In this document: piece by piece, positions 1 through 43,460 of the stretch
Numbering within the stretch: position 1 is the stretch's first letter
How the letters are laid out: the number at the start of each line of letters is the position of its first letter
IMG/VR virus record: IMGVR_UViG_3300042472_000628
Location: 37,455-101,454 of that record
DNA: 64,000 bases
Reading direction: 5' to 3' (one strand)
Source of the DNA: a virus
Lineage: Duplodnaviria; Heunggongvirae; Uroviricota; Caudoviricetes
Notes under the pieces: model-generated
What the model saw: the letters and a program-made list of their open reading frames with translations, nothing else
Databases searched by the model: none
What the model was told of the DNA's origin: nothing
Made by a program: the position numbers and the translations under genes

Positions 1-759
1 TACAAATATGGTTTATCAGGTACTATACCAAAAGAAGGCACTTTAGATAGATTGACTCTAATGGCATACACTGGACCTCTAATCACTGAGATCAGTGCAA
101 ATTACTTGCAAAATGAAGGTCATATTGCAGGTTGTAAAGTAAAAATTATAAAAATGGACTACGCTCCGCAATCTACCAAAGATGCGTTTAGAGAGATGTC
201 ACAAAACAGGTATGAAAGCAAAGATGTTTTTAAATTTGAACAGAATTATGTTATTAATTCACCAGGCCGCCTTAACTTCATTACTAGCATTATTTCCAGA
301 GTTCGCGGTAATAGCTTGGTCTTATTCCATCGTATCGAGCACGGCAAAAAGATATATGATAAATTACGCAGAGAAAGTGATAAAACAGTTTACTATGTTG
401 ATGGAGGAATTGACCAAGATATTCGAGAGGAACACAAAAAGAAAATGGAAGCCGGAGAAGAAGTCGTTATTGTTGCATCGTACGGTACATTTTCAACAGG
501 TATCTCGATTAAGAAGATTCACAACATCTTCTTTACGGAATCTTTTAAATCGGAAGTCATAATTAGACAATCTATTGGTCGTGGTTTAAGACAACATAGT
601 TCAAAAGAGTCTGTTAATATTATTGATTTTGTAGATGATCTTTCATCACCGGATTGGGATAATTATTTAATGAGACATTCCAAAGAGAGACAACGTATCT
701 ATAAAGAACAGAAGTTTAAATTCGATATTAAAAATGTAGATTTTGAAGGAGATATATAA
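1..759 (+). CDS. uvsW: UvsW-like SF2 helicase, C-terminal part (5' end lies outside the window)
   Basis: Frame is open from position 1 (YKYGLSGT..). SF2 motifs V (ASYGTFSTGISI) and VI (RQSIGRGLR). Confidence 0.9.
   Translation, partial: YKYGLSGTIPKEGTLDRLTLMAYTGPLITEISANYLQNEGHIAGCKVKIIKMDYAPQSTKDAFREMSQNRYESKDVFKFEQNYVINSPGRLNFITSIISRVRGNSLVLFHRIEHGKKIYDKLRRESDKTVYYVDGGIDQDIREEHKKKMEAGEEVVIVASYGTFSTGISIKKIHNIFFTESFKSEVIIRQSIGRGLRQHSSKESVNIIDFVDDLSSPDWDNYLMRHSKERQRIYKEQKFKFDIKNVDFEGDI
751..758 (+). promoter_or_regulatory. Putative late promoter GATATATA
   Basis: One of about 15 GATATATA copies sitting just upstream of late/virion genes. Confidence 0.65.
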
Positions 760-795
760 TAAAATAATAACACACAAAATATAAAAAAAGATATT

Positions 796-2559
796 ATGCA
801 AAAATTAAAATCATTTGATCAGTTTTCGACTGAGACAAAAATTTCTCAGACTAGACAACTAGAAGAAGACAAGACTATCAAAAGACAAAATGAAGCTGAA
901 ACATTCAAAACATTACTAGCTGAATTTAATGTAACTTCTATCAAAGAGTTAACACAAGAGCAGAGAGTAACATTTTTTACTAAACTAAGAGGTGCTGAAG
1001 TTAATGAATCAGTTTCGTTAATCGAAGAAGGTACAAGAGGTCAAATCGGTAAAATTGATAAAAAAGGTAATATCACTTCAGTATATATGCAGTATGATTC
1101 ATATCCTGAAAATATTTTACCACATCTTAATAAAGGATTTAAAAACGGTAAAAATGTTGATGAGTTAATTAAAAAAGGTAGCTTTTCAGGTTTAGAAGCT
1201 TCTATCGATAAAATTAGTTTTTATGGAAAACCAGGTCATATGACTGGATCAGCTACCACAGATGCAGATATTAAGAAATACCTTACAAAAACATCAAACG
1301 AAGAATCAGCAGAATATGTTTATTTATGGGATGAAAATGCCAAACAATGGTTGATGGCTGATACTTATGCAAATACTGGTTTAGTTCCAGCATTTGAATC
1401 ACTTTCAGTTTCAGTAAATGAAGCAATTCAAGTACAGTATAAAAGAGATGCTAAAAAAGTACTTACAGTTTACAACAACTTATTCGGTAAAAAATTAACT
1501 GATTTTGGTGCAATGAACATTGACAGTAAATTAGGTTGTATTAAATACTTGTTAGAAGAAGCTATGATAGATGCTAACTTTCATAAAGAAGGACCAGTTG
1601 CATCAGCTGCTATTAAAGGTAACATTGGAACTTTTCAAGTTAAAATGGCAGGATTAGGAAATTATTTTATTAAAATCGGAGCAACGACAGTTAAAAGAAT
1701 TTTAGATCAATACGTGACTGATATTTCAGGAGCATCTGGATGGTCTGGAGTTGGAATAGCTGAAGGTACTGCACTATACTTAGAACAAATTGGACAAGAG
1801 ACTGCAGGTCAGTCTATGTTAAATGCATTTAATGGAATGTTTAATGAATCTTTTATTAATGAAGCTGAAAAGTTTAAATCAACGAAAGACTTTGAAGAAT
1901 TCTGTGAAGAAATCGACAGTATGCCAGAACAAAGGATTAAGAAAATAATGGGTAAAGATTACATTGATACTCCAGGTGGTTATAGAGACGAAGCTGAAGA
2001 TTATGACAATGACATAACTGAATATATGATTTCTAATATGGGTCGTAAAGACTTTGAAGAACTTAAATCATGGTGGGAAAATAATGTAGCTGAATCTTTC
2101 ATCAATGAAGCTGAAATTAATTCAGATGAAGAATTTAATGAATATGCAATGACTGTTTTGAAAAAAGCATTTGGTGCTGAATTCGATGAAGCTAAAGCTA
2201 AAAAAGTTGCAGATGGTATTCTAGCAAAATCAAAGGGTGATTATGGTACTGCCGTTGGTATGTTAACCAGTTCTTTAGGAGAATCAGTTACTAATGAAGC
2301 AATCGATACCAAATATTGGGCAGATTATAATACTGACACTTCAGGACAAGGAAATAAAGAATTTGCAGAAAAATCTAAAGATTTCGAAGATACATTTTCA
2401 TTAGCAGTTTCTGAGTGGAACGCTGAGGCAGACGGTGCTGAAAACAGAATTAAAGGTTCGCAAATTGATAAAGTTAAAAAATTAGCTCAGGAATTCTTCA
2501 AAAAAGAAGGTTACATTTCAGTTAACATTGCACAAGCAATGATAGCACAAGAATCATAA
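796..2559 (+). CDS. Putative head-internal multidomain protein with capsid-targeting N-terminus and repeated (V/I)NE-A/S cleavage-like junctions
   Basis: N-terminus MQKLKSFDQFSTE resembles the T4 CTS MKTYQEFIAE. Internal VNES, VNEA, SFINEAE (x2) and VTNEA separate 60-140 aa modules. Late promoter upstream. Confidence 0.6.
   Translation: MQKLKSFDQFSTETKISQTRQLEEDKTIKRQNEAETFKTLLAEFNVTSIKELTQEQRVTFFTKLRGAEVNESVSLIEEGTRGQIGKIDKKGNITSVYMQYDSYPENILPHLNKGFKNGKNVDELIKKGSFSGLEASIDKISFYGKPGHMTGSATTDADIKKYLTKTSNEESAEYVYLWDENAKQWLMADTYANTGLVPAFESLSVSVNEAIQVQYKRDAKKVLTVYNNLFGKKLTDFGAMNIDSKLGCIKYLLEEAMIDANFHKEGPVASAAIKGNIGTFQVKMAGLGNYFIKIGATTVKRILDQYVTDISGASGWSGVGIAEGTALYLEQIGQETAGQSMLNAFNGMFNESFINEAEKFKSTKDFEEFCEEIDSMPEQRIKKIMGKDYIDTPGGYRDEAEDYDNDITEYMISNMGRKDFEELKSWWENNVAESFINEAEINSDEEFNEYAMTVLKKAFGAEFDEAKAKKVADGILAKSKGDYGTAVGMLTSSLGESVTNEAIDTKYWADYNTDTSGQGNKEFAEKSKDFEDTFSLAVSEWNAEADGAENRIKGSQIDKVKKLAQEFFKKEGYISVNIAQAMIAQES
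1846..2116 (+). repeat. 25-nt direct repeat GAATCTTT(T/C)AT(T/C)AATGAAGCTGAAA at module junctions (1846-1870 and 2092-2116)
   Basis: Read directly; two mismatches; both copies encode ESFINEAE. Confidence 0.8.
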
Positions 2560-2583
2560 CAATTTAAACAAGATACATATCTT

Positions 2584-3873
2584 ATGAAGATTTATAATAC
2601 ATTTGAACATTTTTTAACAGAGAGTTTGCACGACAATCATGACTATACACCAATCTTAGAAGGTGGTGCAGCAGGTCATATGTCACACCCATTTGATAAT
2701 AATGAATTGACGTTTGGTGATTTCAAAGAAATGATTCAAGCCGGTCTTAGTGGATCTCTTAATTTCGAAGAAGAACCTACTGAAAAAACAGACGGTCAAA
2801 ATGTATTTGCAACCATTCAAAATGGTGAAGTAAAATTCGCAAGAAATAAAGGTGATATGAAAACGCCTATGTCTTTGTCTGATTTTAAGACAAAGTTCGA
2901 AGGACATCCTAGTAAATTAGTACAAGACACTTTTCAATTTGCAGCAGATGATTTAGCATCATCTCTTATTAAACTACCAACCAAAACTCAAGAAGAAATA
3001 TTTGCAAATGGATTAAACTTCATGAATATGGAATTAATTTATTCTCTTAATCCTAATGTTATTCATTATGATGTTGATGTTATTCAATTCCATGGTGTAA
3101 AAATAACAGACGGTGAAGGTAATATTACAGGAGAAGATAATTCAGCGGCAAAGAAAATTGCTGGTTTATTAAAAGATGTTGATGCTCATATTCAAAAGAC
3201 ATTCTCTATAATTCCACCACAAGTTATTAAGATAGCTAAAGATATTAACTTTGATGAAAATAAATCAAAGTTCATAGCTAAAGTTGATGCTCTTAGAGAC
3301 ACATTTGGTTTAACAGATGCAGATGCAGTTGCAAGATACCATGAAATGTGGTGGAGAGATCAAATTAATTCAATTTTCCCAGATGCACCACAAGATATTA
3401 AAGAAGGTTTACTATTAAGATGGGCATATGATGATAAGAAAACTCTTAACATCAGAGATCTTGAAAAAATGGGTTTATCAAAAACACAAGCAGATGCTGT
3501 AAAGAAATTTGACAAAGAAGATGTTAAAAAGAAATATAAAGAAAACATTAGACCATTCGAAGATTTATTCTTGGAACTTGGATCTATTATTTTAAAGAAC
3601 GCAAGTAACTTTGTTGCTGCAAACCCTACAGCAGAGATGCAAAGATTACACAACGAACTTAGATCAGAATCGGATAAAATTAAAGCAAACGGAGACCTTT
3701 CTCAAATTGCAAAAGTTGAAGCAGAACTAGCAAGACTAGACAGGATTGGCGGTATTGAATCAATCATACCAACAGAAGGTTTAGTATTTGTTTATAAAGG
3801 TCATACTTATAAATTAACAGGAACATTTGCTGCAGTAAATCAGCTTATGGGATTTATTAAATACGGTAGATAA
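2584..3873 (+). CDS. ATP-dependent ligase-like nucleotidyltransferase (Rnl-like fold) with CTS-like N-terminus
   Basis: Motif I TEKTDG, IIIa IQFHG, IV TEGLVF, V YKLTG. N-terminus MKIYNTFEHFLTE; EGGAAGHMSHPFD motif. Confidence 0.65.
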   Translation: MKIYNTFEHFLTESLHDNHDYTPILEGGAAGHMSHPFDNNELTFGDFKEMIQAGLSGSLNFEEEPTEKTDGQNVFATIQNGEVKFARNKGDMKTPMSLSDFKTKFEGHPSKLVQDTFQFAADDLASSLIKLPTKTQEEIFANGLNFMNMELIYSLNPNVIHYDVDVIQFHGVKITDGEGNITGEDNSAAKKIAGLLKDVDAHIQKTFSIIPPQVIKIAKDINFDENKSKFIAKVDALRDTFGLTDADAVARYHEMWWRDQINSIFPDAPQDIKEGLLLRWAYDDKKTLNIRDLEKMGLSKTQADAVKKFDKEDVKKKYKENIRPFEDLFLELGSIILKNASNFVAANPTAEMQRLHNELRSESDKIKANGDLSQIAKVEAELARLDRIGGIESIIPTEGLVFVYKGHTYKLTGTFAAVNQLMGFIKYGR

Positions 3874-5720
3874 TGGCATTACAAAACTTAAGAACATACT
3901 TTGAATCCTCTAACATTAATGACTTCTTGTCAATGATAGAGTTACCATGCGTTGTATCAGAAAAAATACAAGCATCTTCATTTCACGTTAGAAAAACCAA
4001 TACAGGATTTGAATATTTTAAAAGTGGTTCTAAATCAGCAATGGACAGAATAGACAGAACCATGGTTAAATACTATGAAAATGGTATTAATTATTTTAAA
4101 ACTATTTTACCAGAAGTTACTGAAGAAATGCCAGTAGATTGGAAATTTGGATTTGATTACATGATCGACAACAAGACTGTAGATATTGAGTATGATATTT
4201 TACCAAAAAATCACTTAATTTTAACACACATTCAAATATTAAATCCTACTGATCCAACTCAAATTAAAAAAGTAATTAGAGATCCACAGGTACTAAACAA
4301 ATGGGCTGATAAATTAGGAGTTAACAGAGCGCCAGTTATTTTTGAAGGTAAATTACAATCAAATCAAAAAGATGATCTAGTTAGACTTTTAGAAATATCA
4401 GATGCTGATTTCGCAATTAAATTTAAAGATCACTCTTTCACAAGAACAATATACAATATATTCAATAATGGACTTACAAATCCAGCATTGAACTATTCAT
4501 TAGATAATGAAATCGATGGACTTATCATTAACTTTTATGAAGGTAAAACAATTAAAAGTTTTAAATTAGAGAGATTTGATCGTAAACCACAAGAAGACAG
4601 ATCACCGTCTGATATGTACCAAATTTCAATTTTAGATTTGGTAGAGTACATTACTAACTACGATCTTGACAGTATTCAATTAACCGAAGAGTCAGCTGAC
4701 TTAAGATATATTGAATTAATCTCAGAACTATATAACGGTTACGTTTGGACAAATGCATCTAAATACATTGGTGCTAATTTTGATTCAGCAGATTTTTCAG
4801 ATAATCCTGGATTTGAACTTAATACAGATTTTATTAAAAACGAAAAAACTTTAGCACATGTGCAAAATAAGGTTTTAGCAGAATTATATAAAATTGCATT
4901 AGGAAGCTTTAGAAAGAGAAGAAATAAAGAGACAGATATTATTAACAAAGATTTGATGATTCAGATCAATGACATCGTAGACCATATAGAAACTTTAGTT
5001 ATGGCTAAAACAAATGAAAACGACGTTATGACATTCAAGTCATATCTTATTAATCAAAAACTTCAATATACAGATAGTCCAGTTTTAGAAGGACTTTCAG
5101 TTAAATATCCAGATCAAGGCAAAATGCCAGTAAATATGTTTGTTGGTAGATTCCAACCATTTACACTAGGTCATGTTAAAGTTATTGAAACTATTTATAA
5201 ACAAAATGGATTTCCAGTAGTTATATTTTTAGTTAAATCAAAAACTAAGAAAAAAGAGGATGCATTCTCAAGACCATATGACGAAGACACTCAACTTAAG
5301 ATGTTAGAAAAACTTAAAGGAAAATATCCTATTCAAGAAGTTTTTATAATTGATAGAGGTGCGATCGATTTAATGTTCAATACAATGAGACCTAAATACG
5401 AACCAGTATTATGGGGAACAGGATCAGACAGATTACAAACATATTCATATCAAGTTGATAAACCAGAATATAGAGAAGATTTAGGTTGTAGACCAGATTT
5501 CGGTTTGTTTGAAATACCAAGAACTGGCAAAAACATATCAGCAACTCAAGTTAGAGAAGCTATGTTGGCTGATGACGAGAAGACTTTTAAGAAGCTAACT
5601 CCAGCACCGATACATGATATGTACAATGAATTAAAGACAAAACTAGAAGCATCTATGGGTGTTACAGCAGAGTCTAACGAGACTACATTAACATTTGATC
5701 AGTTTATTAAGAATATATAA
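3873..5720 (+). CDS. Fusion: degenerate ligase-like N-terminal domain plus C-terminal cytidyltransferase/NMNAT-like (T/HxGH) nucleotidyltransferase
   Basis: N-terminal SEKIQAS (KxDG degenerated), IDGLII, SFKLE. C-terminal GRFQPFTLGH, GSDR, ISATQVR. TAATG stop/start overlap with the upstream gene. Confidence 0.7.
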   Translation: MALQNLRTYFESSNINDFLSMIELPCVVSEKIQASSFHVRKTNTGFEYFKSGSKSAMDRIDRTMVKYYENGINYFKTILPEVTEEMPVDWKFGFDYMIDNKTVDIEYDILPKNHLILTHIQILNPTDPTQIKKVIRDPQVLNKWADKLGVNRAPVIFEGKLQSNQKDDLVRLLEISDADFAIKFKDHSFTRTIYNIFNNGLTNPALNYSLDNEIDGLIINFYEGKTIKSFKLERFDRKPQEDRSPSDMYQISILDLVEYITNYDLDSIQLTEESADLRYIELISELYNGYVWTNASKYIGANFDSADFSDNPGFELNTDFIKNEKTLAHVQNKVLAELYKIALGSFRKRRNKETDIINKDLMIQINDIVDHIETLVMAKTNENDVMTFKSYLINQKLQYTDSPVLEGLSVKYPDQGKMPVNMFVGRFQPFTLGHVKVIETIYKQNGFPVVIFLVKSKTKKKEDAFSRPYDEDTQLKMLEKLKGKYPIQEVFIIDRGAIDLMFNTMRPKYEPVLWGTGSDRLQTYSYQVDKPEYREDLGCRPDFGLFEIPRTGKNISATQVREAMLADDEKTFKKLTPAPIHDMYNELKTKLEASMGVTAESNETTLTFDQFIKNI

Positions 5721-5728
5721 TATAAAAC

Positions 5729-7294
5729 ATGGAAACAGAAATGTCATTTAACGAATTCATTAACGAAAGAAATATTACTATTAAAAGGCAATATACTCAA
5801 AATCATCCAGCGAAAACCGTAGGTAAAGCTGCTAAGATTAGAAATAAAGTATTAGAAGCTATTAAAGACGGTAAACTTACTAAAGAAGAATTTGATACAA
5901 TTTTAAGAGAAATGACAACTGATTCTACAAGATGGATGAGAAGAAATTCAGGATATATCACAATGAATGAGGAAGGTATTTCACTTTCTAAAATGGGTAA
6001 AAGAATCTTAAGTCAAATTTTGGTTAACGATGAGATCAATGAGAAAGCTACTCCATTTAAAATTGCAAATGCAAAAGCAGAAGAAATATTTGGAGAATTT
6101 GGCATTGCTACATTAAGCTATGATCAAATTGAAAGAATCATCGATATTAAAAAAGCTGATGCGCTGGCAAAAAAATATGGTGAAAGTAGTTTTATGTCAT
6201 TATCAGAATTAGATATGGAAGAACTTCTTAATAAGAATAAAAACTTAATAAAAGAAAATAAAACAAATAATATGAAAACAAATTTTATTCATGAGTCATT
6301 CAAAGGATTCGTTAATGCTTTAAATGAATCAGATATTAATGAAGCATTTGCATCGATGCAGTTGGCAAATTTATTCACTAGAGATGGTGGTAAACTTGAT
6401 CAAGCTTTAGCTAAAGGATTCTATAACGCTACTAAAATCAAATTAGATTTAGTACAAGATGAAGATCTATTAACAATGGATGCTAATTCAGCTTACAAAA
6501 ACAAACAATCAGACACTATTATATTTTATATCTCTGACACACCTAAAGAAAATCCTTATGCACCTTCAGATGCATATAGTTCTGCAAAGAATATTCCAGG
6601 CGAAGGTTATTTATTAGCTGTAGCTTCAGGTGATAATAAATTCTATGATAACGCATGGTCTAAATATGCTAAAGATAGAAGTCTTAAGCAGGTAGATAAT
6701 AATCCAACAGACTCAATCGGTATTGGTAAAAGATATTCTGGATGGGATGCTACTGGATTATATAATGTAAAAAGAATTTCAGAAGTTGCTGACAGAGCAG
6801 TTGTAATTAACGTTGCATTACTTAAACAAAAGTATTCATCAGAAAACCAAAGAAGAGAAAGATCTGCGGCTAGATCAGGTGCAACAGCATTTAAATCTGA
6901 TAAAGATTTTAAAACTGAGAATATGAATAGATACCACCAAATCTTAGCTCAAAAAGCAGCATCAATGCCATTAGATACACTTGTAGCTGAAGCTATTGAT
7001 ACTTTAAGCAACCAAATCAAAGATGCTTTATTGAAAGGCGAAAAAGGAAAATACGGAGATATTATCATCGGTACTAGTTCAAAAGGAAGAGAATGTAAAA
7101 TGTCAGATGCAGCATACCATATGAAAAATATCTTAGATGAATATCAAAGATATGTTGGTTATGTTAAACAAGAAGAAGATAGTATTGCTAGATATGGTCA
7201 AGCAGAATCATGGTATAAAAAAGAAATGCAAAACTACGCAAAAAGTGTTAAAGACAAAGTTGATCAAATTGGATCAATGTCTTATGCATGGTAA
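5729..7294 (+). CDS. Putative head-internal protein (CTS-like N-terminus, internal NE-K/A/S sites)
   Basis: METEMSFNEFINER; internal EINEKA and LNESDINEAF; possible in-frame internal start at 6272. Confidence 0.55.
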   Translation: METEMSFNEFINERNITIKRQYTQNHPAKTVGKAAKIRNKVLEAIKDGKLTKEEFDTILREMTTDSTRWMRRNSGYITMNEEGISLSKMGKRILSQILVNDEINEKATPFKIANAKAEEIFGEFGIATLSYDQIERIIDIKKADALAKKYGESSFMSLSELDMEELLNKNKNLIKENKTNNMKTNFIHESFKGFVNALNESDINEAFASMQLANLFTRDGGKLDQALAKGFYNATKIKLDLVQDEDLLTMDANSAYKNKQSDTIIFYISDTPKENPYAPSDAYSSAKNIPGEGYLLAVASGDNKFYDNAWSKYAKDRSLKQVDNNPTDSIGIGKRYSGWDATGLYNVKRISEVADRAVVINVALLKQKYSSENQRRERSAARSGATAFKSDKDFKTENMNRYHQILAQKAASMPLDTLVAEAIDTLSNQIKDALLKGEKGKYGDIIIGTSSKGRECKMSDAAYHMKNILDEYQRYVGYVKQEEDSIARYGQAESWYKKEMQNYAKSVKDKVDQIGSMSYAW

Positions 7295-7309
7295 TAAAAA
7301 GATATAAAG

Positions 7310-7948
7310 ATGCCAAGTAAATCAGTTGCACAACAACACTTAATGGGAATGGCTTACGCTTATAAAAAAGGTGAGTTAAAGTCAGATGAAGTAAGCGGAG
7401 AAGTTAAAGACTTGGCTGATTCAATGACTATGCAACAACTTAAAGATTTTGCAAGTACAAAACATAAAGGTTTACCCCAATATGTTGAAGAGAATATAAC
7501 AACTGCTGCAATGGCAGGTATGGGACCAGTAGTTTTACCAATGAATGGTGTTAATGGTTCTGGTGATGTACCAGCAGGAAAAGGCGATGCTAAGAAAGCA
7601 TATAAGAAAAAGAAAAAGAAAACAGTGGTACATTTAACATTTGAAAATTTTGTAAACGAAGCATATGAGAACGACGACATCAATATGATGTATGGTTATT
7701 TTGGAAGCATGGAACAAGAATACGATGAAGCTAAAGCACATAAAGAGTTTGATCAAGCAGTAAAAGATTTAATTAAAGAATTTAAGTTTAAAGAACAAGA
7801 CGCACTGAACTTATTAAATTCAAAGGTAGGAAGGCAAGCAGCAGATGCTATCATTGCCAGAGAATGTGAAGAAGGTGCAGTTAACGGAGTTTATTGGTAT
7901 TTAGGTAAAGATAAAAATAAAGTTTTATCATACACTAAGAAATTGTAA
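7310..7948 (+). CDS. DUF3008-like N-terminal domain protein with internal CTS-like motif
   Basis: MPSKSVAQQHLMGMAYAYKKGE...MTMQQLKDFASTKHKGLP resembles DUF3008; internal HLTFENFVNEAY. Confidence 0.6.
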   Translation: MPSKSVAQQHLMGMAYAYKKGELKSDEVSGEVKDLADSMTMQQLKDFASTKHKGLPQYVEENITTAAMAGMGPVVLPMNGVNGSGDVPAGKGDAKKAYKKKKKKTVVHLTFENFVNEAYENDDINMMYGYFGSMEQEYDEAKAHKEFDQAVKDLIKEFKFKEQDALNLLNSKVGRQAADAIIARECEEGAVNGVYWYLGKDKNKVLSYTKKL

Positions 7949-7968
7949 TAATTAATATAGATATTTTT

Positions 7969-7998
7969 AAAGCCCAAGCGTAAGTTTGGGCTTTTTTT
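7969..7998 (+). terminator. Rho-independent terminator
   Basis: AAAGCCCAA-loop-TTGGGCTTT followed by a T tract; ends the late block. Confidence 0.85.
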
Positions 7999-8724: not shown

Positions 8725-10152
8725 ATGAAATTAGTAGACGCTTTAAGACAAGAAGACATTTTAACAGAAAATGGCATGGCCACAAACTCAAGCTCATTAA
8801 ATGCTTGCGTAGATTTATTCTTTAACATTGGTGCAATGAGAGGCCAAGACAAACAACGTTTGATCGCAACCTTTTCGAAAGCGTTCAATGAAGATCCTAG
8901 ACGTGCAATGAAATTGTTATTTTGGGCACGTGATGTTAGAGGTGGTGCAGGTGAACGTCAAGTTTTCAAAGACATCTTAGTTTACTTAGCTGAGAATCAT
9001 GACTTGGTTTTAAAACCAAACTTACACTTGATTTCAGAATATGGTCGTTGGGATGACTTGTTAGTTCTTACAGGAACTTATTTAGAGAAAGAAGCATTTA
9101 CATTAATCTCAGATGCAATCATTGCTGAGAATGGTTTATGTGCTAAATGGATGCCACGTAAAGGTGCAGTAGCTGAAAAGTTACGTAAATTTACAGGTAT
9201 GTCACCAAAACAATATCGTAAATCATTAGTTGGTTTGACAAGTGTTGTTGAAACTAAAATGTGTGCTAAAGATTGGGACTCTATCGAGTTTGGTAAATTG
9301 CCATCAGTAGCATCAGCACGATACCAAAAAGCATTTGGTAAAAATGCATACGAAAGTTATTCAGCTTACATCGCTTCTTTAGTGAAAGGTGAAGCTAAGA
9401 TCAATGCAGGTGCAGTATATCCATATGATGTGATTAAGTCATTGACTCATGGAAATGCAACAGTTGCTAACGAGCAATGGAAAGCTTTACCAAACTACAT
9501 GGAAGGTGCAAACGATATGATTTTACCAGTTGTGGATGTTTCGGGTTCAATGTCAAGTCCAGCAAGTAAAACTGTAACTTGTATGGATGTTGCAATCTCT
9601 TTAGGTCTTTATATTTCTGAAAGAAATGAAGGTGCTTTTAAAGATGCATTCGTTACATTCTCAGATAATCCAAAATTACAAGTAGTTTCTGGATCTTTAG
9701 CTGACAGATATGCACAAATGTCGACAGCTGATTGGGGAATGAGTACAAACTTAGAAGCTACATTTAAATTGATTTTAGATCAAGCTACTAAGCACAAATT
9801 ATCTCAAGACGAAATGCCAAATAAAATCTTAATCTTATCAGATATGGAATTTAATTCGGCAACTGGTTCTAGAGGTTGGGGAAGTAATAGAACTGAAGCT
9901 TGGAATCCAACTGCTCAACAAATGATTGAGAACATGTACGATGTAGCAGGTTACACAATGCCTCAAATCGTTTATTGGAACATTCAATCCAGAAATGGTG
10001 GTGTACCAGTAGCATTTGACAAAGCGGGAACTGCATTGGTATCAGGATTCTCGCCAGCAATTATGACAAGTTTGCTTGGAGGTGATATTGAATCACCACA
10101 ACAAATAATGGATAAAACAATCTTGAGCGAGAGATACGCTCCAATTGTTTAG
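8725..10152 (+). CDS. Ro60/TROVE-related RNA-binding protein with C-terminal vWA domain (DUF2828-like)
   Basis: TENG, LFWARDVRGGAGER, YGRWDDL, AKWMPR, LPSVA and KINAGAVYPY; vWA MIDAS DVSGSM, ILSDMEF, YWN, LVSGFSP. Confidence 0.85.
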   Translation: MKLVDALRQEDILTENGMATNSSSLNACVDLFFNIGAMRGQDKQRLIATFSKAFNEDPRRAMKLLFWARDVRGGAGERQVFKDILVYLAENHDLVLKPNLHLISEYGRWDDLLVLTGTYLEKEAFTLISDAIIAENGLCAKWMPRKGAVAEKLRKFTGMSPKQYRKSLVGLTSVVETKMCAKDWDSIEFGKLPSVASARYQKAFGKNAYESYSAYIASLVKGEAKINAGAVYPYDVIKSLTHGNATVANEQWKALPNYMEGANDMILPVVDVSGSMSSPASKTVTCMDVAISLGLYISERNEGAFKDAFVTFSDNPKLQVVSGSLADRYAQMSTADWGMSTNLEATFKLILDQATKHKLSQDEMPNKILILSDMEFNSATGSRGWGSNRTEAWNPTAQQMIENMYDVAGYTMPQIVYWNIQSRNGGVPVAFDKAGTALVSGFSPAIMTSLLGGDIESPQQIMDKTILSERYAPIV

Positions 10153-10159
10153 ATATATA
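10152..10159 (+). promoter_or_regulatory. Putative late promoter driving the non-coding locus
   Basis: GATATATAATAAA, with no ORF downstream before the terminator at 10506. Confidence 0.6.
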
Positions 10160-10171
10160 ATAAAAGAAATT

Positions 10172-10232
10172 AGGTTCCTTACAGCAAACAATACACAAGC
10201 AATTACAAATTAAGCAAAAAGGAATGGAACCT
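10172..10232 (+). ncRNA. Candidate small structured RNA 1 (closing stem + TACAGCAA), possible Ro60 ligand
   Basis: AGGTTCC(10172-78) pairs with GGAACCT(10226-32). The stem is followed by N-TACAGCAA and an A-rich loop. Confidence 0.5.
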
Positions 10233-10234
10233 GG

Positions 10235-10494
10235 CGGATAGGTACAGCAAAAAGTACAAACACAGCTATGATAGAGTCTAGATAAAAACGTGGAGTTTTA
10301 AAATGGTTCGCCCTCTAAAACAGTGAAGCGCTAGACAAGGTGAAGGTTAACACTAGAAAATGGATCACAAGTCATACCACCCCAATAGGTGCAATTAGGA
10401 TGTAGTCGAAGTATAGTAGACTCTCGCGAAAGCAAAGCCGAAGACTATAAAGAGGGTTATTCTGCCGAGAAGAAAATCACGAACAACTATCCCG
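10235..10494 (+). ncRNA. Candidate structured RNA 2 (about 260 nt, closing stem + TACAGCAA)
   Basis: CGGATAG(10235-41) pairs with CTATCCCG(10487-94, one bulged C); same N-TACAGCAA after the stem. Inner helices CCCTCT/AGAGGG and TGTAGTC/GACTATA, plus a GC-GAAA-GC tetraloop. GC-richer than the flanks; no ORF. Confidence 0.5.
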
Positions 10495-10505
10495 TATTAG
10501 ATTAG

Positions 10506-10553
10506 AATCCTGGTAAAAATTGTTAATAACTTTTTTAACCAGGATTTTTTTTT
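10506..10553 (+). terminator. Rho-independent terminator overlapping the next early-type promoter
   Basis: AATCCTGGT ... ACCAGGATT followed by a T tract. Confidence 0.8.
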
Positions 10554-10576
10554 GTCAATTATTATTCGTATATTAG
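10519..10576 (+). promoter_or_regulatory. Putative early promoter
   Basis: ATTGTTaatAACTTTT ... TGTCAA-N10-TATATTAG. Confidence 0.7.
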
Positions 10577-10601
10577 CTTTATAATTAAAAACAAACAAAT
10601 T

Positions 10602-11336
10602 ATGCCACAAATATTTAAAGTAGGAGGTTGTATTAGAGATAAGTTTCTCGGAGTCGACTCAAAGGACATAGATTTCACATTCGTTTTAGACGATTTAAGT
10701 GGAACAGTAGAAGATGGTTTTCAAATCATGACGGATTGGATGACTGAAAGAGGATTTGAAATATTCTTAAGTACTCCAGATTGTTTTACGATTAGAGCTA
10801 AGTTTCCAAAAGATCACCAATTCACTGGACTTGTTGCAGATTTTGTAATGGCAAGAAAAGAAGTCGGTTACACTGAAGGAACTCGTCGACCAATCTTAGA
10901 ACTTGGAACTCTCGAAGATGATTTACTTCGTCGAGATTTCACAGTCAATGCTTTAGCAGAAGATATTGATGGAAACCTTATTGATCTTTTTGGTGGAGTA
11001 GATGACCTAAAAGCCGGTATTTTAAGAACTCCATTGGATCCACGTATCACTATGATGGACGATCCATTGAGAATCTTAAGAGCTCTTAGATTTACAATCA
11101 CTAAAGATTTGACAATGTCTATGGATATTTGGGAAGCTATTCAGCAACCAGGAATCTTAAAGAAATTAGAATTGACAGTAAGTAGCCAAAGAATCAGAGA
11201 CGAGATTGAAAAAATGATGAAATTTAATACCGTTAGAAGTTTTAGACTTTTAATGGATGTAGATGCTATCATTCCAGGATTTTTAGAATTAATCTTCAAA
11301 GATGGAATGTGGTTAATGCCAACCTTTAAACAATAA
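10602..11336 (+). CDS. cca: Class II tRNA nucleotidyltransferase (CCA-adding / poly(A) polymerase family), compact
   Basis: VGGCIRD, DIDF, RRDFTVNAL, DDPLRILRALRF; only 244 aa. Confidence 0.85.
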   Translation: MPQIFKVGGCIRDKFLGVDSKDIDFTFVLDDLSGTVEDGFQIMTDWMTERGFEIFLSTPDCFTIRAKFPKDHQFTGLVADFVMARKEVGYTEGTRRPILELGTLEDDLLRRDFTVNALAEDIDGNLIDLFGGVDDLKAGILRTPLDPRITMMDDPLRILRALRFTITKDLTMSMDIWEAIQQPGILKKLELTVSSQRIRDEIEKMMKFNTVRSFRLLMDVDAIIPGFLELIFKDGMWLMPTFKQ

Positions 11337-11340
11337 TATT

Positions 11341-11994
11341 ATGATAAACAATTTAGAATTAATTAGACCTTTATTGAACTTCGAAAAGAAGGGTGACTTT
11401 TACATGCTTTATGTTTTTAAACGTAAGAAAGATCAACCTGAAGGCGAACGAGATAATCATCAATCAGTAAGAACTATTAAGACTTATTGTATTGAAAGTA
11501 TTGACCATTTGGAACGTAGATGGGATGAGATTATTCAATTATGTGAGATGTTTAAGGCACGTGCTTATATTCATGTACAAAAACAAAATCACTTTGATGT
11601 GTCACTTAATATGATGGTTGCACTTGCACAAAGAATTCAAGATGGTAACACAAATCAAAAGGGACTATTCGATTCTGTTGTTGGTCAAATCAAAACTCAA
11701 GAAAAGAGATGGATCATTGATGTAGATGATATGATGGAAGCTAGTCCAGTGATGATGGCTTATATTGAATACAATTGTGCACCGATTACTAAAGTTAAAT
11801 TTGATGAAGCAGGAATGCCAATTGGGTATGAAGTTGGTCCAAAAATTGAAGCGATCATTCCAACTAAGAATGGTCATCATTTAATCACTAAGAAGTTCGA
11901 CGTAATGAAGTTCAAAGAGGCTTATCCTGATTTAGATATTCAAAAGAAGAATCCTACACTATTGTACTATCCTGATAGTCTAGAAAATTGTTAA
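11341..11994 (+). CDS. Hypothetical protein, possible AEP (primase-polymerase) superfamily fold
   Basis: WIIDVD (DxD), TKNGHH (xxGxH), LDIQK. Confidence 0.4.
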   Translation: MINNLELIRPLLNFEKKGDFYMLYVFKRKKDQPEGERDNHQSVRTIKTYCIESIDHLERRWDEIIQLCEMFKARAYIHVQKQNHFDVSLNMMVALAQRIQDGNTNQKGLFDSVVGQIKTQEKRWIIDVDDMMEASPVMMAYIEYNCAPITKVKFDEAGMPIGYEVGPKIEAIIPTKNGHHLITKKFDVMKFKEAYPDLDIQKKNPTLLYYPDSLENC

Positions 11995-34735: not shown

Positions 34736-35119
34736 ATGGCAAAAAAGAAAAATTACTTAAACAACAAGGATCTATTCGATGCGATTGTAGAATCAAAAGA
34801 ATTAGACAAGTTAACACCAACAGCAGAAAAAATGCTAGTGTTATTGGCCGAACGAGCTATTAATAAATTAAGTTATGTTAACAGCGATGATAGAGATGAT
34901 TGCTTACAGTTTGCATTATTAGATCTATTAAAATATTGGAGAAACTTCAATCCTAAATATCCTAATGCATTTGCATATTTTACAGAAATTGCAAAACGAG
35001 GATATGCCAAAGGTTGGAATAAAATTCATCCACTTAAATACAAAGGTACATTATCAATTGATCGCATTTCAACAGGTGGTTCAAGCGAAGATGGTGGCGG
35101 TGGAATGTTCAACATTTAA
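34736..35119 (+). CDS. gp55: Late-transcription sigma factor (gp55-like)
   Basis: NYLNNKDLF, DDCLQFAL, NFNP..PNAFAYFTEIA. Confidence 0.85.
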   Translation: MAKKKNYLNNKDLFDAIVESKELDKLTPTAEKMLVLLAERAINKLSYVNSDDRDDCLQFALLDLLKYWRNFNPKYPNAFAYFTEIAKRGYAKGWNKIHPLKYKGTLSIDRISTGGSSEDGGGGMFNI

Positions 35120-37863: not shown

Positions 37864-38205
37864 ATGAAAATTATTAAAACATTTGAAGACTTCTTAACTG
37901 AAGACGCTTTAAGAGCTGGAGAAGATTCACAAGTAGTTATCGATGATATCGATTTAGATTCAGGTTCTACTATAAAAGCAGCTGAAATTTTAGGAGCTAT
38001 TTCTGCCTCTATCACAGATGAAGAGTTTAAACAGTACTTCTATGATGAATACGGAGAGAATGCTTTCGGTGAAGGTGAGATTGATCAGTTAGTTAAAATA
38101 TATAACGATAAAGCTGCAGAAGACTTAGAAGCTGAGAAAGAAAAAGAAAAAGAAGCTGAAGGAGAAGAAGGCGGAGACGCTGAAGATCCACTTGCCGGGT
38201 TATAA
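37864..38205 (+). CDS. Small acidic prohead core protein (gp67/68 position) with CTS-like N-terminus
   Basis: MKIIKTFEDFLTE; lies between portal and protease. Confidence 0.55.
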   Translation: MKIIKTFEDFLTEDALRAGEDSQVVIDDIDLDSGSTIKAAEILGAISASITDEEFKQYFYDEYGENAFGEGEIDQLVKIYNDKAAEDLEAEKEKEKEAEGEEGGDAEDPLAGL

Positions 38206-38261: not shown

Positions 38262-40244
38262 ATGAACAATACTAACGATTTATTAATCGTCGAAATGTCT
38301 TCTTCTACACTGAGTGTTAAAACTTCAGATAATAAAGAATACATCCTCGAAGGAGTTTTTGGTCAAATCGATCAAAAAAACAGAAACAACCGTATTTATA
38401 CGGAGTCGGAATATATTCCACAAATTGAAGCATTACAAGCTAAAATTAAAGCTAGTAAACTTTTAGGAGAACTAGATCATCCTGCTCAATTTGATATTTC
38501 TTTAAAAAATGTATCACACATTATTGAAGAATTGACATATGACAAAGCTAGTAAAGAAGTTAGAGGTAGAATTAAATTATTGGATACTGATGCAGGTAGA
38601 CAAGCTAAAGCTTTAGTTGATGCAGGTGTTCCATTACAAATTTCTTCTAGAGCTGCAGGTGCCGTTGAATCTAATGGTACTGTAAAGATCAAACAATTAT
38701 TCACATATGATTTAGTTGCTGACCCAGGTTTTGAAAACGCTGAGTTAAAGAGAGTTAACGAATCTTTTGGATATAGTAATGATGGTTTAATTTCTATTTA
38801 TGAAATTAACAGATCTTCTGAAACTTCATTAGAAACTATCAACACAATCGAAAACACAAACACACAAATAAAAGAAAATAAAAACATGGCAGAATTTGTA
38901 AAATCTGAAGATTTCAATAGATACTCTGAGTATTTAGCGAATGAAATCAAGACATTAAAAGAGTCTATGGAAGCCAAAAATGTTGAGGTTTCGGAAGACA
39001 ACACAGTAGACAACCTAAAAGAACACAATAACCACATTGTAGAAACTGTTAATAAATTAACAGACTACGTTGAATATGTTGCAACTAAATTAGATGAATC
39101 TATTCAATATTCAGAGCACGTTGCTGAAAAAGCAGATCAAGGTATTGCTTACTCAGAATCGTTAGCTGAAAAATTAGATCAAGGTATCTCTTATACAGAG
39201 CACGTTGCTGAAGCAGTTTCTAAAGTTAAAGATTTCGCTAATTATTTAGCTGAAGCTCATAACGAAGGTGCTACATCTCACACTACTTTATTAGAGTACG
39301 TTGAATACTTAAAAGAAAACTTACAATCAGTTTCTGAATATGCAGAATACATTGCAGAATCATTAAACGAAACAGTTATTACTGAAGAAGATGCACCTGC
39401 TAAAGATGCTGACGAAGCAGAAGAAACTGACGAAATCGAAAACATCGGTGATAATTCAGAAGAAGGTGCAGTAGCTAAAGATGGCGAAAACGCTGGTAAA
39501 GACGTTGAAGAAATCGAAGGTGAAGAAGTTGAAGCCGGAGATAATTCAAAAGAAGGTGATGTATCTAAAGACGGCGAAAAAGCTGGAGAAGATGCAGAAG
39601 ACTTAGAATCTAATGCTAAAACATCTGACGCTGAAGTTAAAGACAAAGTTGACGCAGCTGAACCGGGTGAAGGTGAAGAAGAAGCAGAAGGTGAAGAAGG
39701 TGCATTAGATCCTTTAGAAGCTTACAAAAATGAAATCTCTTCTAAATTAGATGCATTAGTTGAAAGCGCAACTAAAAAAGAAAATGAATCACCATCTTTC
39801 TTTAGAGTTGTTTCTTCTAATACAAGAGAAAAATACAACGCATTAACTGAATCTGCAAAATCAGAAGTTAGAAACACAGTTTCTAAAAGAGGTTTTATGA
39901 CTGAATCAGAAATCGTATCATTAATGAACAATGCTCAACTTATTGTTGAAAGCGCAGGTGCACAACCTACATTTATTGCTCTTATGCCAACTGAATACTC
40001 TGAAGCATGGACTAATTTATCTGAAGCTAAACAAAATCAAATCATTGCTCAAGCAAAATACCACACATTGAACACTGAATACCAAGTTGCTAATTTCTGG
40101 CAAACTAGAGATCTAAGAGATACTAAAGTTGAAATGGAGAAAGTTGCAATGGTTACTGAATCAAAAACTGAAGAGCCTAAATCAACACTAGGATATGATA
40201 TGACTGGTATGGCAGAAGCGTTCAAACAGAGATTTAACAAATAA
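38262..40244 (+). CDS. gp21: Prohead protease fused to a scaffold/core (gp22-like) coiled-coil domain
   Basis: KNRNNRIY, GELDHP, ISSRAAG, TYDLVADPG, followed by about 450 aa of coiled coil and acidic linker. Confidence 0.88.
   Translation: MNNTNDLLIVEMSSSTLSVKTSDNKEYILEGVFGQIDQKNRNNRIYTESEYIPQIEALQAKIKASKLLGELDHPAQFDISLKNVSHIIEELTYDKASKEVRGRIKLLDTDAGRQAKALVDAGVPLQISSRAAGAVESNGTVKIKQLFTYDLVADPGFENAELKRVNESFGYSNDGLISIYEINRSSETSLETINTIENTNTQIKENKNMAEFVKSEDFNRYSEYLANEIKTLKESMEAKNVEVSEDNTVDNLKEHNNHIVETVNKLTDYVEYVATKLDESIQYSEHVAEKADQGIAYSESLAEKLDQGISYTEHVAEAVSKVKDFANYLAEAHNEGATSHTTLLEYVEYLKENLQSVSEYAEYIAESLNETVITEEDAPAKDADEAEETDEIENIGDNSEEGAVAKDGENAGKDVEEIEGEEVEAGDNSKEGDVSKDGEKAGEDAEDLESNAKTSDAEVKDKVDAAEPGEGEEEAEGEEGALDPLEAYKNEISSKLDALVESATKKENESPSFFRVVSSNTREKYNALTESAKSEVRNTVSKRGFMTESEIVSLMNNAQLIVESAGAQPTFIALMPTEYSEAWTNLSEAKQNQIIAQAKYHTLNTEYQVANFWQTRDLRDTKVEMEKVAMVTESKTEEPKSTLGYDMTGMAEAFKQRFNK
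39447..39610 (+). repeat. Two 30-aa (90-nt) tandem units in the acidic linker of the protease-scaffold
   Basis: GDNSEEGAVAKDGENAGKDVEEIE / GDNSKEGDVSKDGEKAGEDAEDLE. Confidence 0.75.
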
Positions 40245-40365: not shown

Positions 40366-41847
40366 ATGGCAAATTTATTAAACGAAGCTGAGATCAAGAA
40401 TACATGGGCACCGATTATCTCGGAAGCTACAGGTATCAACGAATCTAGCAAATTAGCGTGGATGTCGACTTACTGTCATAACCACAAATTGTATGAAGAC
40501 GCAAACATTATGTCTTTATCTAACAACCCTGGCCCAATGAACTTAACAGGTATGGGTGCAGTATCTTTTCCTTCAGCGATTGGACAAGGTGCAAATGTAG
40601 GAACTAACGGTTCAGGTGACAAATCACCAACGTTATTGCCTTTAGCAATGCAAGTTGCTGCTCAAACTATCGGTTTAGACTTAGTACCAGTAGTACCAAT
40701 GGCAGGTCCAATGGGATTATTGTCTTACTTAGACTTTACTTACGAAGGTGGTACAATCGAATTAGGTAAAACTGCTCCAACTTACATTAAAGTAGGTGTA
40801 GCTTCAGCTGAAGTTATCGCAGACGTTATCGCAGAGATCAAAGCATTAGCTTTAGATACTATTCCTGCAGCTGCAGGTTACGGTGCTTACGAATTAGTAG
40901 GAACTTCTAGAATTGATGGTAAAATGATTTTCAAAGTAGGAACAGTTGTAGCTGCAAACGTAGAAGCTGACGTTACTTTAGCATTAGCTTCATTAACTGA
41001 AGATGCTACTGCAACAGGTGTTACTTTAGTTGCTGCATTAGAAGATCATATTCCTGCATTCTCTGGAGCTGCTGCTAACGGTAGACCAATGTCTAGAGAA
41101 GTTGGTGAAAGAACTGCTGATAAAGTAATGGGTCTTTCTTTATTCTCTAAATCAGTTGCTGCTGAAACTTTCCAAGTTGCTGCTGCAGTTACTAGAGAAC
41201 AAGTACAAGATTTAAAACAATTCGGTGTAGATGCTGTTGCTCAAGTAGAAGCAGTTTTAACTAACGAATTAACTCAATCTATCAACAATCACATCTTATA
41301 CAAAATGAGAGAGATTGCTGAAACAGGTTTAGGTCTTCCTAGTAACACATTAACTTTAGATTACACTCAAGGTGGAAATACTTATGGTGATGTTAACAGA
41401 AGAATCTTAACTAACATTCTTGCTGCTGCGAACTTAATCGCAAACAGAGGAAGAAGAGGTGCTGGTAACTTCGCAGTTGTAGGAGCAAAAGTTGCTTCAG
41501 CTTTACAATCAATTGCAGGTTTCGTACCAAATCCAATGGCTAACACATTCAACCAAGTTGCAGGTGCTATCTACCCATTAGGATCTGTTGCAGGTGTTAA
41601 CATCTATACTGACCCTAATTTAGAATGGGAAGGTGCTACACAACAAGTATTAGTTGGTAGAAAAGGTGATGGTAACGGTGCTGGATTAGTATTCATGCCT
41701 TACTTAATGGCTGAATCAGTTCAAATGATTGCAGAAGGAACAATGGCTCCAAAAGTAGCTGTTAAATCTAGATATGCATTAGTTGAAGCTGGATTCCACC
41801 CAGGTACACAATACCAAAAATTCGAAGTTGCTGGTTTACAATTGTAA
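40366..41847 (+). CDS. gp23: Major capsid protein
   Basis: WAPII, VVPMAGPMG, QDLK, NELTQSIN, GRRGAGNFAV, PY, P...VKSRYAL. Confidence 0.95.
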   Translation: MANLLNEAEIKNTWAPIISEATGINESSKLAWMSTYCHNHKLYEDANIMSLSNNPGPMNLTGMGAVSFPSAIGQGANVGTNGSGDKSPTLLPLAMQVAAQTIGLDLVPVVPMAGPMGLLSYLDFTYEGGTIELGKTAPTYIKVGVASAEVIADVIAEIKALALDTIPAAAGYGAYELVGTSRIDGKMIFKVGTVVAANVEADVTLALASLTEDATATGVTLVAALEDHIPAFSGAAANGRPMSREVGERTADKVMGLSLFSKSVAAETFQVAAAVTREQVQDLKQFGVDAVAQVEAVLTNELTQSINNHILYKMREIAETGLGLPSNTLTLDYTQGGNTYGDVNRRILTNILAAANLIANRGRRGAGNFAVVGAKVASALQSIAGFVPNPMANTFNQVAGAIYPLGSVAGVNIYTDPNLEWEGATQQVLVGRKGDGNGAGLVFMPYLMAESVQMIAEGTMAPKVAVKSRYALVEAGFHPGTQYQKFEVAGLQL

Positions 41848-41975: not shown

Positions 41976-43460
41976 ATGAAACTAAAATCAAAATTAAAAC
42001 TTTACGAAGAATTTGTAAATGTAACTCGTCAAGTAAATGATTCTAATGCAACAAAAACAGACGTTGCAATTGATAAGGTATCTGTAGACAAAGAAAATAC
42101 TATCAGAACAGAAATAACCAAAGATGTTGATTCAATTCTTAATAATTTAATTGAATTATCAGACAGAATCGGAGAAAGCACCGAAGTAGATACACTTTTC
42201 GAAGAATTATTCGAAGCTCTTAGTATATCAGATCTTAATGAAGGTATTATGGATATTATCAAAAGTCCTATCAAGTATATGAAAATTTCTAAAGCTTTGA
42301 AAGGTTATCAAAAAGCTTTAGTAAGTCAGGCTATTAATGATTTGGATTTTGCTAAGAAAAAAGAAGCAAGTGATGTAGATACTGAAGACAAGACTCCTGA
42401 AATGAAGAAAAAACTAGAAGTACTTAAACAATCAAACTTAGCTAAAAACCAAGCACTTAAAGACGAAGCTACAGGATATTCAGATAGAATGTCTGAATTA
42501 TCAAAAGGAGATGAAGGTCTAGCAACTGTTGTAAGTTTAGGTAAAGCAAAATCTAAAATTGCTGCTGCAAAAACTGCAATGAAAGCTGCTTCAGGTGAAG
42601 AATCAAAATCTCTTAAATTAGAAATTCAAGATTTAGAAGATAGAGTAGCTGATGATGAGAGAGAATTAAAAGATTATGCTAAAACTAATCAAAAAGATGG
42701 TGAACCTATAGATAAAGATAAAGAAGCTGCTGCTGCACAATCAGCTGCACAATTAGGTGGATCTGATGATAATGAAGAAGGAAAACCAGCAAAAACTAAA
42801 CCTGCTGCAAAAGACGATGATACAACTACACCTGCAGAACCAGCAACAGATGATAAAAAAGCTCAAGAAATTGAAAAATTAGAAGCAGATAAAACAACAG
42901 CTAAAGAAGCATATGATGCACTTCCAGAAGATGCAGATATGAAAACAAAAGCAGCTGCAAAAGTTAAACTTTTACAAATTCAATTAAAACAAGCTCAACT
43001 TAAAGAAGATGACGCAGAAGTTATAAACGGATTTAAATCAGAATTAGATATAGAAACTGCAAAAATGAATGCAAAGGTAATCCCACAAGTAGCTGCACCA
43101 ACAGAAGTAACAGAAGAAGGTTTAGCTTTTGAAGCATTACTTATTGAAGCATCAGTAAGTGGTTTAATGGCATCTGATGATGAAGGAGACGGATACAAAT
43201 ACCTTAAAGCTCAAGCTAAAAAATTAGGAGTTAAAGTAAGTGTAAATAAAGATCCTTACGGAGACGGTTATGATGAACTTGGTTTTTCTGGTGATAAAGG
43301 AGCTGTTATGAAACTAGCGGGTATATCAGGACATGCTGAAGATATTAACGATGGTGTTTATGATTTATCAGAATCAAAAGAAGTAGAATTACCTAAAACT
43401 ATTAAATTAGATGAAAGTATGACAATCGCAGAGAAATTTGCAAAATTGATGAATAAATAA
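41976..43460 (+). CDS. Putative head-internal protein (CTS-like N-terminus)
   Basis: MKLKSKLKLYEEFVN; LNEG, LIEAS, LDESM sites; late promoter at 41928. Confidence 0.5.
   Translation: MKLKSKLKLYEEFVNVTRQVNDSNATKTDVAIDKVSVDKENTIRTEITKDVDSILNNLIELSDRIGESTEVDTLFEELFEALSISDLNEGIMDIIKSPIKYMKISKALKGYQKALVSQAINDLDFAKKKEASDVDTEDKTPEMKKKLEVLKQSNLAKNQALKDEATGYSDRMSELSKGDEGLATVVSLGKAKSKIAAAKTAMKAASGEESKSLKLEIQDLEDRVADDERELKDYAKTNQKDGEPIDKDKEAAAAQSAAQLGGSDDNEEGKPAKTKPAAKDDDTTTPAEPATDDKKAQEIEKLEADKTTAKEAYDALPEDADMKTKAAAKVKLLQIQLKQAQLKEDDAEVINGFKSELDIETAKMNAKVIPQVAAPTEVTEEGLAFEALLIEASVSGLMASDDEGDGYKYLKAQAKKLGVKVSVNKDPYGDGYDELGFSGDKGAVMKLAGISGHAEDINDGVYDLSESKEVELPKTIKLDESMTIAEKFAKLMNK

Follow-up and report, generated by a model that had tools for sequence, protein, structure and literature searches.

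The DNA considered here is a stretch of 64,000 nt, called the window throughout, from a virus of the Caudoviricetes; it comprises bases 37455–101454 of one 165,454-bp viral record (IMGVR_UViG_3300042472_000628), the completeness of which is put at about 61% by CheckV. Its subject is a block of five genes, A to E, and a short peptide sequence, hereafter the tag, which recurs in their products and resembles the leader of the internal head proteins of bacteriophage T4. The G+C content is about 32%, and nearly all genes lie on the + strand. The record contains a T4 core set of genes; these include the portal, S77 prohead protease, major capsid protein, sheath and tube, as well as gp4-like and gp2-like proteins, a clamp loader, a gp46/47-like nuclease and a gp55-type late sigma factor. 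The closest capsid protein in the phage collection, from the 462-kb uncultured phage LR756500.1, is only 50% identical and is followed in rank by those of Lak and Tenacibaculum phages; the virus is therefore a distant T4-like phage, and probably a jumbo phage. A megablast search with the five-gene block against the phage collection gave no match.

The five-gene block and its tag

The five genes follow a helicase gene and are closely spaced, the distances between consecutive genes from A to E being 24, −1, 8 and 15 nt (Table 1). An earlier note, made from the letters alone, had bounded the block by a late-type promoter at 751 and a terminator at 7969. Both are borne out, the first by the distribution of its motif and the second by a stem followed by a T run. 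Across the whole genome all 26 copies of the motif GATATATA[AT] are on the + strand, with none on the − strand, and almost all of them lie 12–65 nt ahead of a start codon. The genes behind it include those for portal, core, protease, capsid, the product of 41976, sheath and tube (examples lie at window positions 751, 36211, 37852, 38230, 40259, 41928, 52119 and 55013), and the motif precedes nine of ten tagged or loosely tagged genes. The gp55-type sigma factor is likely to read the GATATATAA motif, and motif and sigma factor together suggest that the block is expressed late, along with the head genes. Between the terminator and position 8097 lies an early-promoter cassette of the type found ahead of many non-structural genes.

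The tag consists of an aromatic residue, two further residues, a second aromatic, one of [LIV], any residue and Glu, and its cores in this phage include FEDFLTE, FEHFLTE, FNEFINE and YDQFINE. Tag strings had been claimed at the N-termini of A, B and D, at the C-terminus of C and inside E, and all are found there; the second, internal tag of D and the repeated cut-type sites of A had been overlooked. The whole genome was scanned for the tag core as the regular expression [FY]xx[FY][LIVS][NT]E, using a simple gene call of 203 proteins and 50,416 residues. The scan gave seven matches, six of which begin exactly at residue 7. In 500 rounds of shuffling, in which the composition of each protein was kept, the mean was 0.99 matches in total and 0.04 at the N-terminus, with an N-terminal maximum of one. 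Besides A, B and D, the six comprise the acidic 113-residue protein at 37864 and two enzymes encoded outside the window; the seventh match is internal, in E. The same tag had also been ascribed to the genes at 37864 and 41976; it is exact in the former, but the latter has a loose match without the terminal Glu. Looser versions also start a 122-residue, a 343-residue and an 87-residue protein. The first of these (genome 32636–33004; L084:637–1005) begins MKTFNTYLLE, in the exact register of the T4 leader MKTYQEFIAE; it has the late-promoter motif 12 nt upstream and is kept in most related contigs.

A cut-type motif, [LIVF][NT]E[AS], is present in 27 copies in the 203 proteins, the four proteins richest in it being A (five), the protease-scaffold protein (three), the capsid protein (two, both within the first 26 residues) and D (two). 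The highest density of the related pattern [LIVF]xE[AS] in the genome, nine sites, is found in a 394-residue late protein with no family match (window 33473–34657), which may be a further core or scaffold protein.

Table 1. Positions of the block and of related features in the window (a slash marks a predicted cut)
Feature	Position	Strand	Details
Late-promoter motif GATATATAA	751..759	+	45 nt before gene A; overlaps stop codon of upstream helicase gene
Gene A	796..2559	+	587 residues; N-terminal tag residues 1–13 (nt 796–834); starts MQKLKSFDQFSTE
Gene B	2584..3873	+	429 residues; tag residues 1–13 (nt 2584–2622); starts MKIYNTFEHFLTE; variable linker 14–23
Gene B ligase motifs	2662–2679; 2782–2799	+	GGAAGH; motif I EKTDGQ
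Gene C	3873..5720	+	615 residues; Rnl2-like fold residues 1–400; HxGH nucleotidyltransferase residues 422–562
Gene C motifs	3960–3977; 5145–5174	+	EKIQAS (motif I-like); GRFQPFTLGH
Gene C 3' end	5658–5672; 5673–5717	+	Predicted cut GVTAE/S; C-terminal tag, ending TLTFDQFIKNI
Gene D	5729..7294	+	521 residues; N-terminal tag residues 1–13 (nt 5729–5767); starts METEMSFNEFINE
Gene E	7310..7948	+	212 residues; internal tag HLTFENFVNE, residues 108–117 (nt 7631–7660)
Intrinsic terminator, strong	7969..7994	+	11-bp stem, then T run; closes operon
gp55-type late sigma factor	34736..35119	+	phrog_234, E 4.9e-11
Prohead core protein	37864..38205	+	Acidic, 113 residues; exact tag MKIIKTFEDFLTE; between portal and protease
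Prohead protease-scaffold fusion	38262..40244	+	660 residues; S77 residues 26–138
Major capsid protein	40366..41847	+	N-terminus MANLLNE/AEIKN
Late protein	41976..43460	+	494 residues, low complexity; loose tag MKLKSKLKLYEEFVNV

A pattern scan of IMG/VR returned 80 loci, of which the 38 closest were used for tag counts. In these, the core lies near the N-terminus in 88 of 464 distinct open reading frames (ORFs), 45 of them with the core at residue 7 and 20 at residue 4, which is exactly the register of T4; the tagged ORFs give the consensus MKHIKLFEQFINE. The genes that make up the block differ from contig to contig, and the block is presumptively a variable cargo locus, as are the internal-protein loci of T-even phages. 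Among 30 orthologues of B the core is kept in 28, with free variation in the next 11–13 residues; in the remaining two Asp replaces Glu, and four orthologues bear two tandem tags. About 25 orthologues of C (48–80% identical) all end in [ML]TFxx[FY][LIV], behind a linker of variable length and a V-x-A-E/S site, and C can therefore be said to have a conserved C-terminal tag; the earlier description needs correction only in that the cut is likely to fall upstream of this tag. In LR756500.1 the same block follows the same helicase gene and contains a tagged orthologue of B (MKFLKSYEEFLNE), small tagged ORFs and a DUF3008 protein which ends in a Lys run and then the tag.

Enzymes and modular proteins

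Two of the five products had been taken for enzymes; this is confirmed, and three catalytic-type domains were found in B and C. Residues 24–429 of B fall into a large family, with 1,810 representatives at E <= 0.001. E67, K68, D70 and G71 (EKxDG) are invariant in 42 sequences, as are GGxxGH and further residues. The predicted model has a mean predicted local distance difference test (pLDDT) score of 87.8, with a helix at residues 2–16 and a disordered stretch at 16–31. The top 28 matches in Foldseek consist entirely of ligases, with fungal tRNA ligase and T4 Rnl1 at the head (best E 1.5e-3, which is weak; probability 0.97). VIA-align gave Z-scores of 8.7 for a Naegleria RNA ligase (root mean square deviation 3.8, 185 residues aligned), 8.3 for Trl1 and 7.8 for T4 Rnl1. 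As predicted from sequence and model, B is an RNA ligase with a KxDG motif I and an adenylyltransferase fold. It has no further strict cut site after E13, and would be left as a 416-residue folded enzyme.

The predicted model of C residues 1–400 (pLDDT 86.7) matches T4 Rnl2 (E 1.3e-7, probability 1.00), and Atlas features of this N-terminal domain point to PF09414. Its motif I is EKIQAS; nearly all orthologues have the Lys, most have other residues at the D/H and G positions, and one retains the canonical EKIDGS. The C-terminal domain matches PF01467 at 32 bits (cut-off 21) and TIGR00125 at 38.3 bits (cut-off 27.7), and GRFQPFTLGH is invariant among orthologues of C. The specific NMNAT equivalog models all score far below their own cut-offs on it. 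From these features it is identified as an HxGH nucleotidyltransferase (PF01467, NMNAT/cytidylyltransferase-like). BLASTP detected no paralogy between B and C, though the ligase fold is common to both.

In more distant viral contigs a B-type ligase is fused behind an HxGH nucleotidyltransferase, without a tag, and such a fusion is also found in Microcystis phage Mel-JY01. Since these distant homologues are untagged, the capsid tags appear to have been added in the present lineage; since the two activities are fused in other viruses, B and C most likely cooperate in RNA end-healing or sealing. The fusion family is widespread (IMG/VR contigs L041–L082, about 670–830 residues), some members add a P-loop kinase or a CCA-adding-type domain, and the ligase part is covered by no Pfam model.

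Two further enzymes, outside the window, carry the exact tag. One is a Nudix hydrolase (MKHLKKYDQFINE; genome 158049–158537, L086:750–1238; PF00293, 1.3e-12) and the other a PNK-type HAD-like phosphatase (MKHLKNYTEYLNE; genome 159120–159719, L086:1821–2420; phrog_415, 1.7e-12); a late-promoter motif lies ahead of both genes at genome 157715. Just downstream of the block (window 8725–11994) are untagged RNA-handling genes with early promoters, which encode a Ro60/TROVE-like protein (phrog_850) and a tRNA nucleotidyltransferase (phrog_24229). The phage thus seems to carry two sets of genes for RNA handling, one injected and the other expressed.

The remaining products, A, D and E, appear to be composite. 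A has sites of the form x[NT]E/[AS] after E71, E209, E356, E438 and E501, and looks like a chain of modules. Its residues 79–193 match phrog_1987, and residues 79–189 match stand-alone proteins of about 120 residues from cyanophages and Streptococcus phages. Most orthologues stop at A's residue 495, directly before SVTNE/A, and the additional C-terminal module is part of another ORF in locus L021. D carries its internal tag, ESFKGFVNALNESDINE, at residues 189–205 (nt 6293–6343), between two modules; in relatives the C-terminal module occurs as separate ORFs, with the tag first and then NE/AFAS as in D. E comprises, in order, DUF3008 (PF11450; residues 4–57; 50.8 bits against a cut-off of 24), a GMGPVVLP motif, a Lys run, the internal tag and a phrog_8020-like module. 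Short DUF3008 orthologues of E terminate in the tag, and in locus L036 one ORF consists of the tag at its start followed by E's C-terminal module. The tag inside E, present as first described, is thus better regarded as a fusion junction; an internal GTG start ahead of it was considered and dropped for want of evidence. A G-M-G-(P/A)-x-x-L-P motif is conserved between DUF3008 and the Lys run (window 7517–7540; E orthologues in L004, L007, L014, L018 and L037).

In relatives, the genes for A, D and E are therefore divided or terminated at tag or cut sites, so that the predicted cut sites coincide with the places where genes have been split or joined in evolution. Searches of Pfam, NCBIfam and PDB sequences gave no family for A, B or D, tblastn with D gave no match, and Atlas searches with D residues 205–521 and A residues 72–356 gave no usable lead.

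Head machinery and comparison with known systems

In T4 the head genes are ordered portal, small acidic core protein (the place of gp67 and gp68), protease, scaffold and capsid. The same order is found here, with the core protein tagged; unlike in T4, protease and scaffold form one fused protein. The portal corresponds to phrog_213, the capsid protein to phrog_138 and the protease to Peptidase_S77 (PF03420, 43.4 bits, cut-off 27; phrog_207, 3.3e-45). The protease is likely to cut itself at RVNE/S (E167), at the end of the protease domain. The scaffold part contains seven repeats of about 14 residues with the tag-like sequence Y[ST]E[YH][LV]AE (residues 221–367; window 38922–39362), and this resemblance suggests that the tag joins the core by imitating the scaffold repeat. 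A complex prediction of scaffold residues 205–380 with B residues 1–40, run without controls, scored 0.00 and speaks neither for nor against binding. The product of 41976 is a candidate internal head protein.

The leaders of T4 (NC_000866) read MKTYQEFIAE/A in IPII and IPIII and MKTFKEF in IPI, and gp23 is cut at FGSFLTE/AEIGG. The capsid protein here starts MANLLNE/AEIKN, and the first residues past the predicted cut therefore match mature gp23. Its propeptide seems to be seven residues long, or 26 if the cut is at GINE/S (window 40366–40443), compared with 65 residues in gp23.

The capsid targeting sequence of T4 internal proteins was reportedly described by Mullaney and Black in 1996. In IPI, IPII and IPIII this sequence is removed by the prohead protease gp21 (PMC9026906, PMC3012670). 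Targeting depends on leader residues 4 and 7 and processing on residues 8 and 10, gp21 cutting after L/I-x-E (PMC9026906); the conserved positions of the tag, namely the aromatics and [LIV]-x-E, are these same targeting and processing positions. In both systems a short N-terminal leader with two aromatics three residues apart, followed by [LIV]-x-Glu, stands on unrelated proteins, together with a T4-type S77 protease and a variable cargo locus, and 20 related ORFs are in exact T4 register (MKTFNKYLIE as against MKTYQEFIAE). There are also differences. The commonest register here is three residues longer, with Glu at residue 13, and the P2 residue is mostly Asn or Thr. The cargo is large (212–615 residues) and includes enzymes, whereas the T4 proteins are small and basic. 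In this phage the tag is also seen at one C-terminus and within fused proteins, and its targeting role is a predicted one.

A parallel for large cargo is T4 Alt, a head-borne enzyme which is processed by the head protease and injected. Alt is processed at both ends (PMC9026906), and its C-terminal processing parallels the predicted upstream cut and tag of C. Alt, however, is an ADP-ribosyltransferase, in contrast to the RNA ligase and nucleotidyltransferase encoded here, and no sequence relationship was found between Alt and the tagged proteins. In the giant phages phiKZ, 201phi2-1 and SPN3US, inner-body or ejection proteins are cut after Glu by a gp21-related protease (PMC5694885, PMC7411985). 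As proposed here, many head-internal proteins are processed, with several cut sites per propeptide, and ejection is presumed. Their propeptides, however, are mostly longer than 100 residues, the cut motif is S/A/G-x-E and there is no shared 13-residue tag; the present phage belongs to the T4-core lineage, separate from theirs.

The enzymes themselves recall T4 Rnl1, Pnkp and Rnl2, in that the RNA ligase fold is present in B and in the N-terminal domain of C, KxDG is present in B and the genome encodes a PNK-type phosphatase. The T4 enzymes are found untagged in the cytoplasm, whereas in this phage the tag is on the ligases and on the phosphatase-like protein, and their genes stand behind late promoters. 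Unlike the T4 RNA repair enzymes, B's family is normally fused to an HxGH nucleotidyltransferase.

Proposed packaged cargo, alternatives and meaning

The block at 751–7994 is best explained, with a probability of roughly three in four, as a late operon encoding cargo addressed to the capsid of a distant T4-like phage, probably a jumbo one. The earlier view of the tag as a T4-type capsid-targeting and cleavage sequence is supported by the identity of the pattern with that of T4, the protease, the gene order, the promoter, the conservation of the tag and its presence at fusion joints. What the sequences show are the tags, with their placement and conservation, the protease, the promoter and terminator, and the enzyme folds; packaging, cleavage positions, head retention, ejection, function and any role against host defence are inferred.

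In the mechanism proposed, the short amphipathic tag (consensus M-K-H-I-K-L-F-E-Q-F-I-N-E) would copy the repeat unit of the phage's own scaffold and so bring a protein into the prohead core as that core forms on the portal. Cutting after the Glu of [LIV]-[NT]-E by the T4-type serine protease would then free the tag and also separate the multi-module proteins A, D and E into modules. The tag would be removed from the N-terminus of B and from the C-terminus of C, behind V-x-A-E/S, and in D and E would lie between fused modules as well. Large products, unable to exit the shell, would stay among the DNA and be ejected into the next host, as for IPI*, IPII*, IPIII* and Alt of T4. To the cargo B and the N-terminal domain of C would each contribute an RNA ligase, and the C-terminal domain of C an HxGH nucleotidyltransferase; the tagged Nudix hydrolase and PNK-type phosphatase encoded elsewhere would join them. 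Such cargo could plausibly serve to mend at once any tRNA or other RNA that host defence nucleases have cut.

Several observations weigh against this explanation. Packaging, cutting and ejection are drawn wholly from analogy with T4, and in T4 and most phages RNA repair enzymes are untagged and cytoplasmic. The structural Z-scores of B are middling, and the ligase domain of C may be inactive, since its motif I is non-canonical. The C orthologue of LR756500.1 is untagged and has no C-terminal tail, and D orthologues in three loci (L005, L006 and L040) have no N-terminal tag. Finally, because the cut-type motif was partly derived by eye from A and the capsid protein, its enrichment in these proteins is not a fully independent test.

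The main rival holds that the tag does target the core, but that some or all of the cargo, chiefly A, D and E, consists of assembly or core proteins like gp67 and gp68, which are cut small and expelled before DNA packaging. T4 core proteins are indeed cleaved and mostly leave the head (PMC9026906). A, with at least six cut-type sites and modules of 60–150 residues, would suit such a fate, A, D and E are without an enzyme domain, and the acidic core protein at 37864, in the gp67/gp68 position, bears the same tag. We nevertheless consider disposable core material unlikely. B, with no strict site past E13, would stay an intact enzyme, and to discard tagged intact enzymes makes little sense; moreover the locus varies strongly among relatives, like T4 internal-protein loci and unlike essential core genes.

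Less likely again is that the leader does not address proteins to the capsid and is instead recognised in another process, for example by a modifying enzyme or a chaperone, or helps translation to start efficiently in an AT-rich genome, and that the ligases act late in the cytoplasm. RNA repair enzymes are normally cytoplasmic (PMC7824862), and the tag codons are AT-rich. Such a role is made improbable by tags that lie at a C-terminus or at joints within fused proteins, where the start of translation is irrelevant, and by the protease cut motif in which the tag ends, matching the T4 leader and the gp23 site. The tag is also found on the core protein between portal and protease, and late-promoter motifs stand before all but one of ten tagged or loosely tagged genes. 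A radical-SAM partner was sought in the record and not found, which is weak evidence as the record is only about 61% complete. A chance origin of the strings in a Lys/Phe/Asn/Glu-rich proteome from DNA of 32% G+C, in which short motifs would be common, is refuted by the shuffles (six N-terminal matches in one register as against 0.04), by the tag counts in the 38 loci and by the conservation of the pattern in orthologues of B with diverged linkers.

Capsid-addressed cargo thus being the preferred explanation, its purpose can be considered. A phage's earliest action against host defences is through the proteins that it injects, few of which are known in T4, namely the three internal proteins, one of them an anti-restriction protein, and Alt. 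A more specific proposal, which we hold as tentative and somewhat short of even odds, is that this lineage pre-loads a kit for RNA repair and nucleotide handling (two ligases, a nucleotidyltransferase, a PNK-type phosphatase and a Nudix hydrolase, all of them tagged), injects it and repairs damage by host anticodon nucleases or by other defences aimed at RNA or nucleotides before phage expression, the tag doubling as a joint for module shuffling.

The principle has been known since 1996; distinctive here are the lineage, the register of the tag, its C-terminal and internal positions, the chain-of-modules proteins and RNA ligases as cargo. In the literature, no description was found of such tagged cargo outside T4 and its close relatives, no report of RNA ligases as virion cargo, and no usable virion proteome of the cultured relative Tenacibaculum phage PTm1. 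RNA repair genes of jumbo phages feature in published surveys, but not as virion cargo (PMC7824862).

If the explanation is correct, a widespread aquatic group of large T4-related phages would put the same address label on a much larger and faster-changing cargo. The tag would then provide a simple sequence rule by which injected effectors could be predicted in metagenomes, as well as a portable tool for loading proteins into capsids. RNA repair could then be a pre-emptive counter-defence rather than a delayed one.

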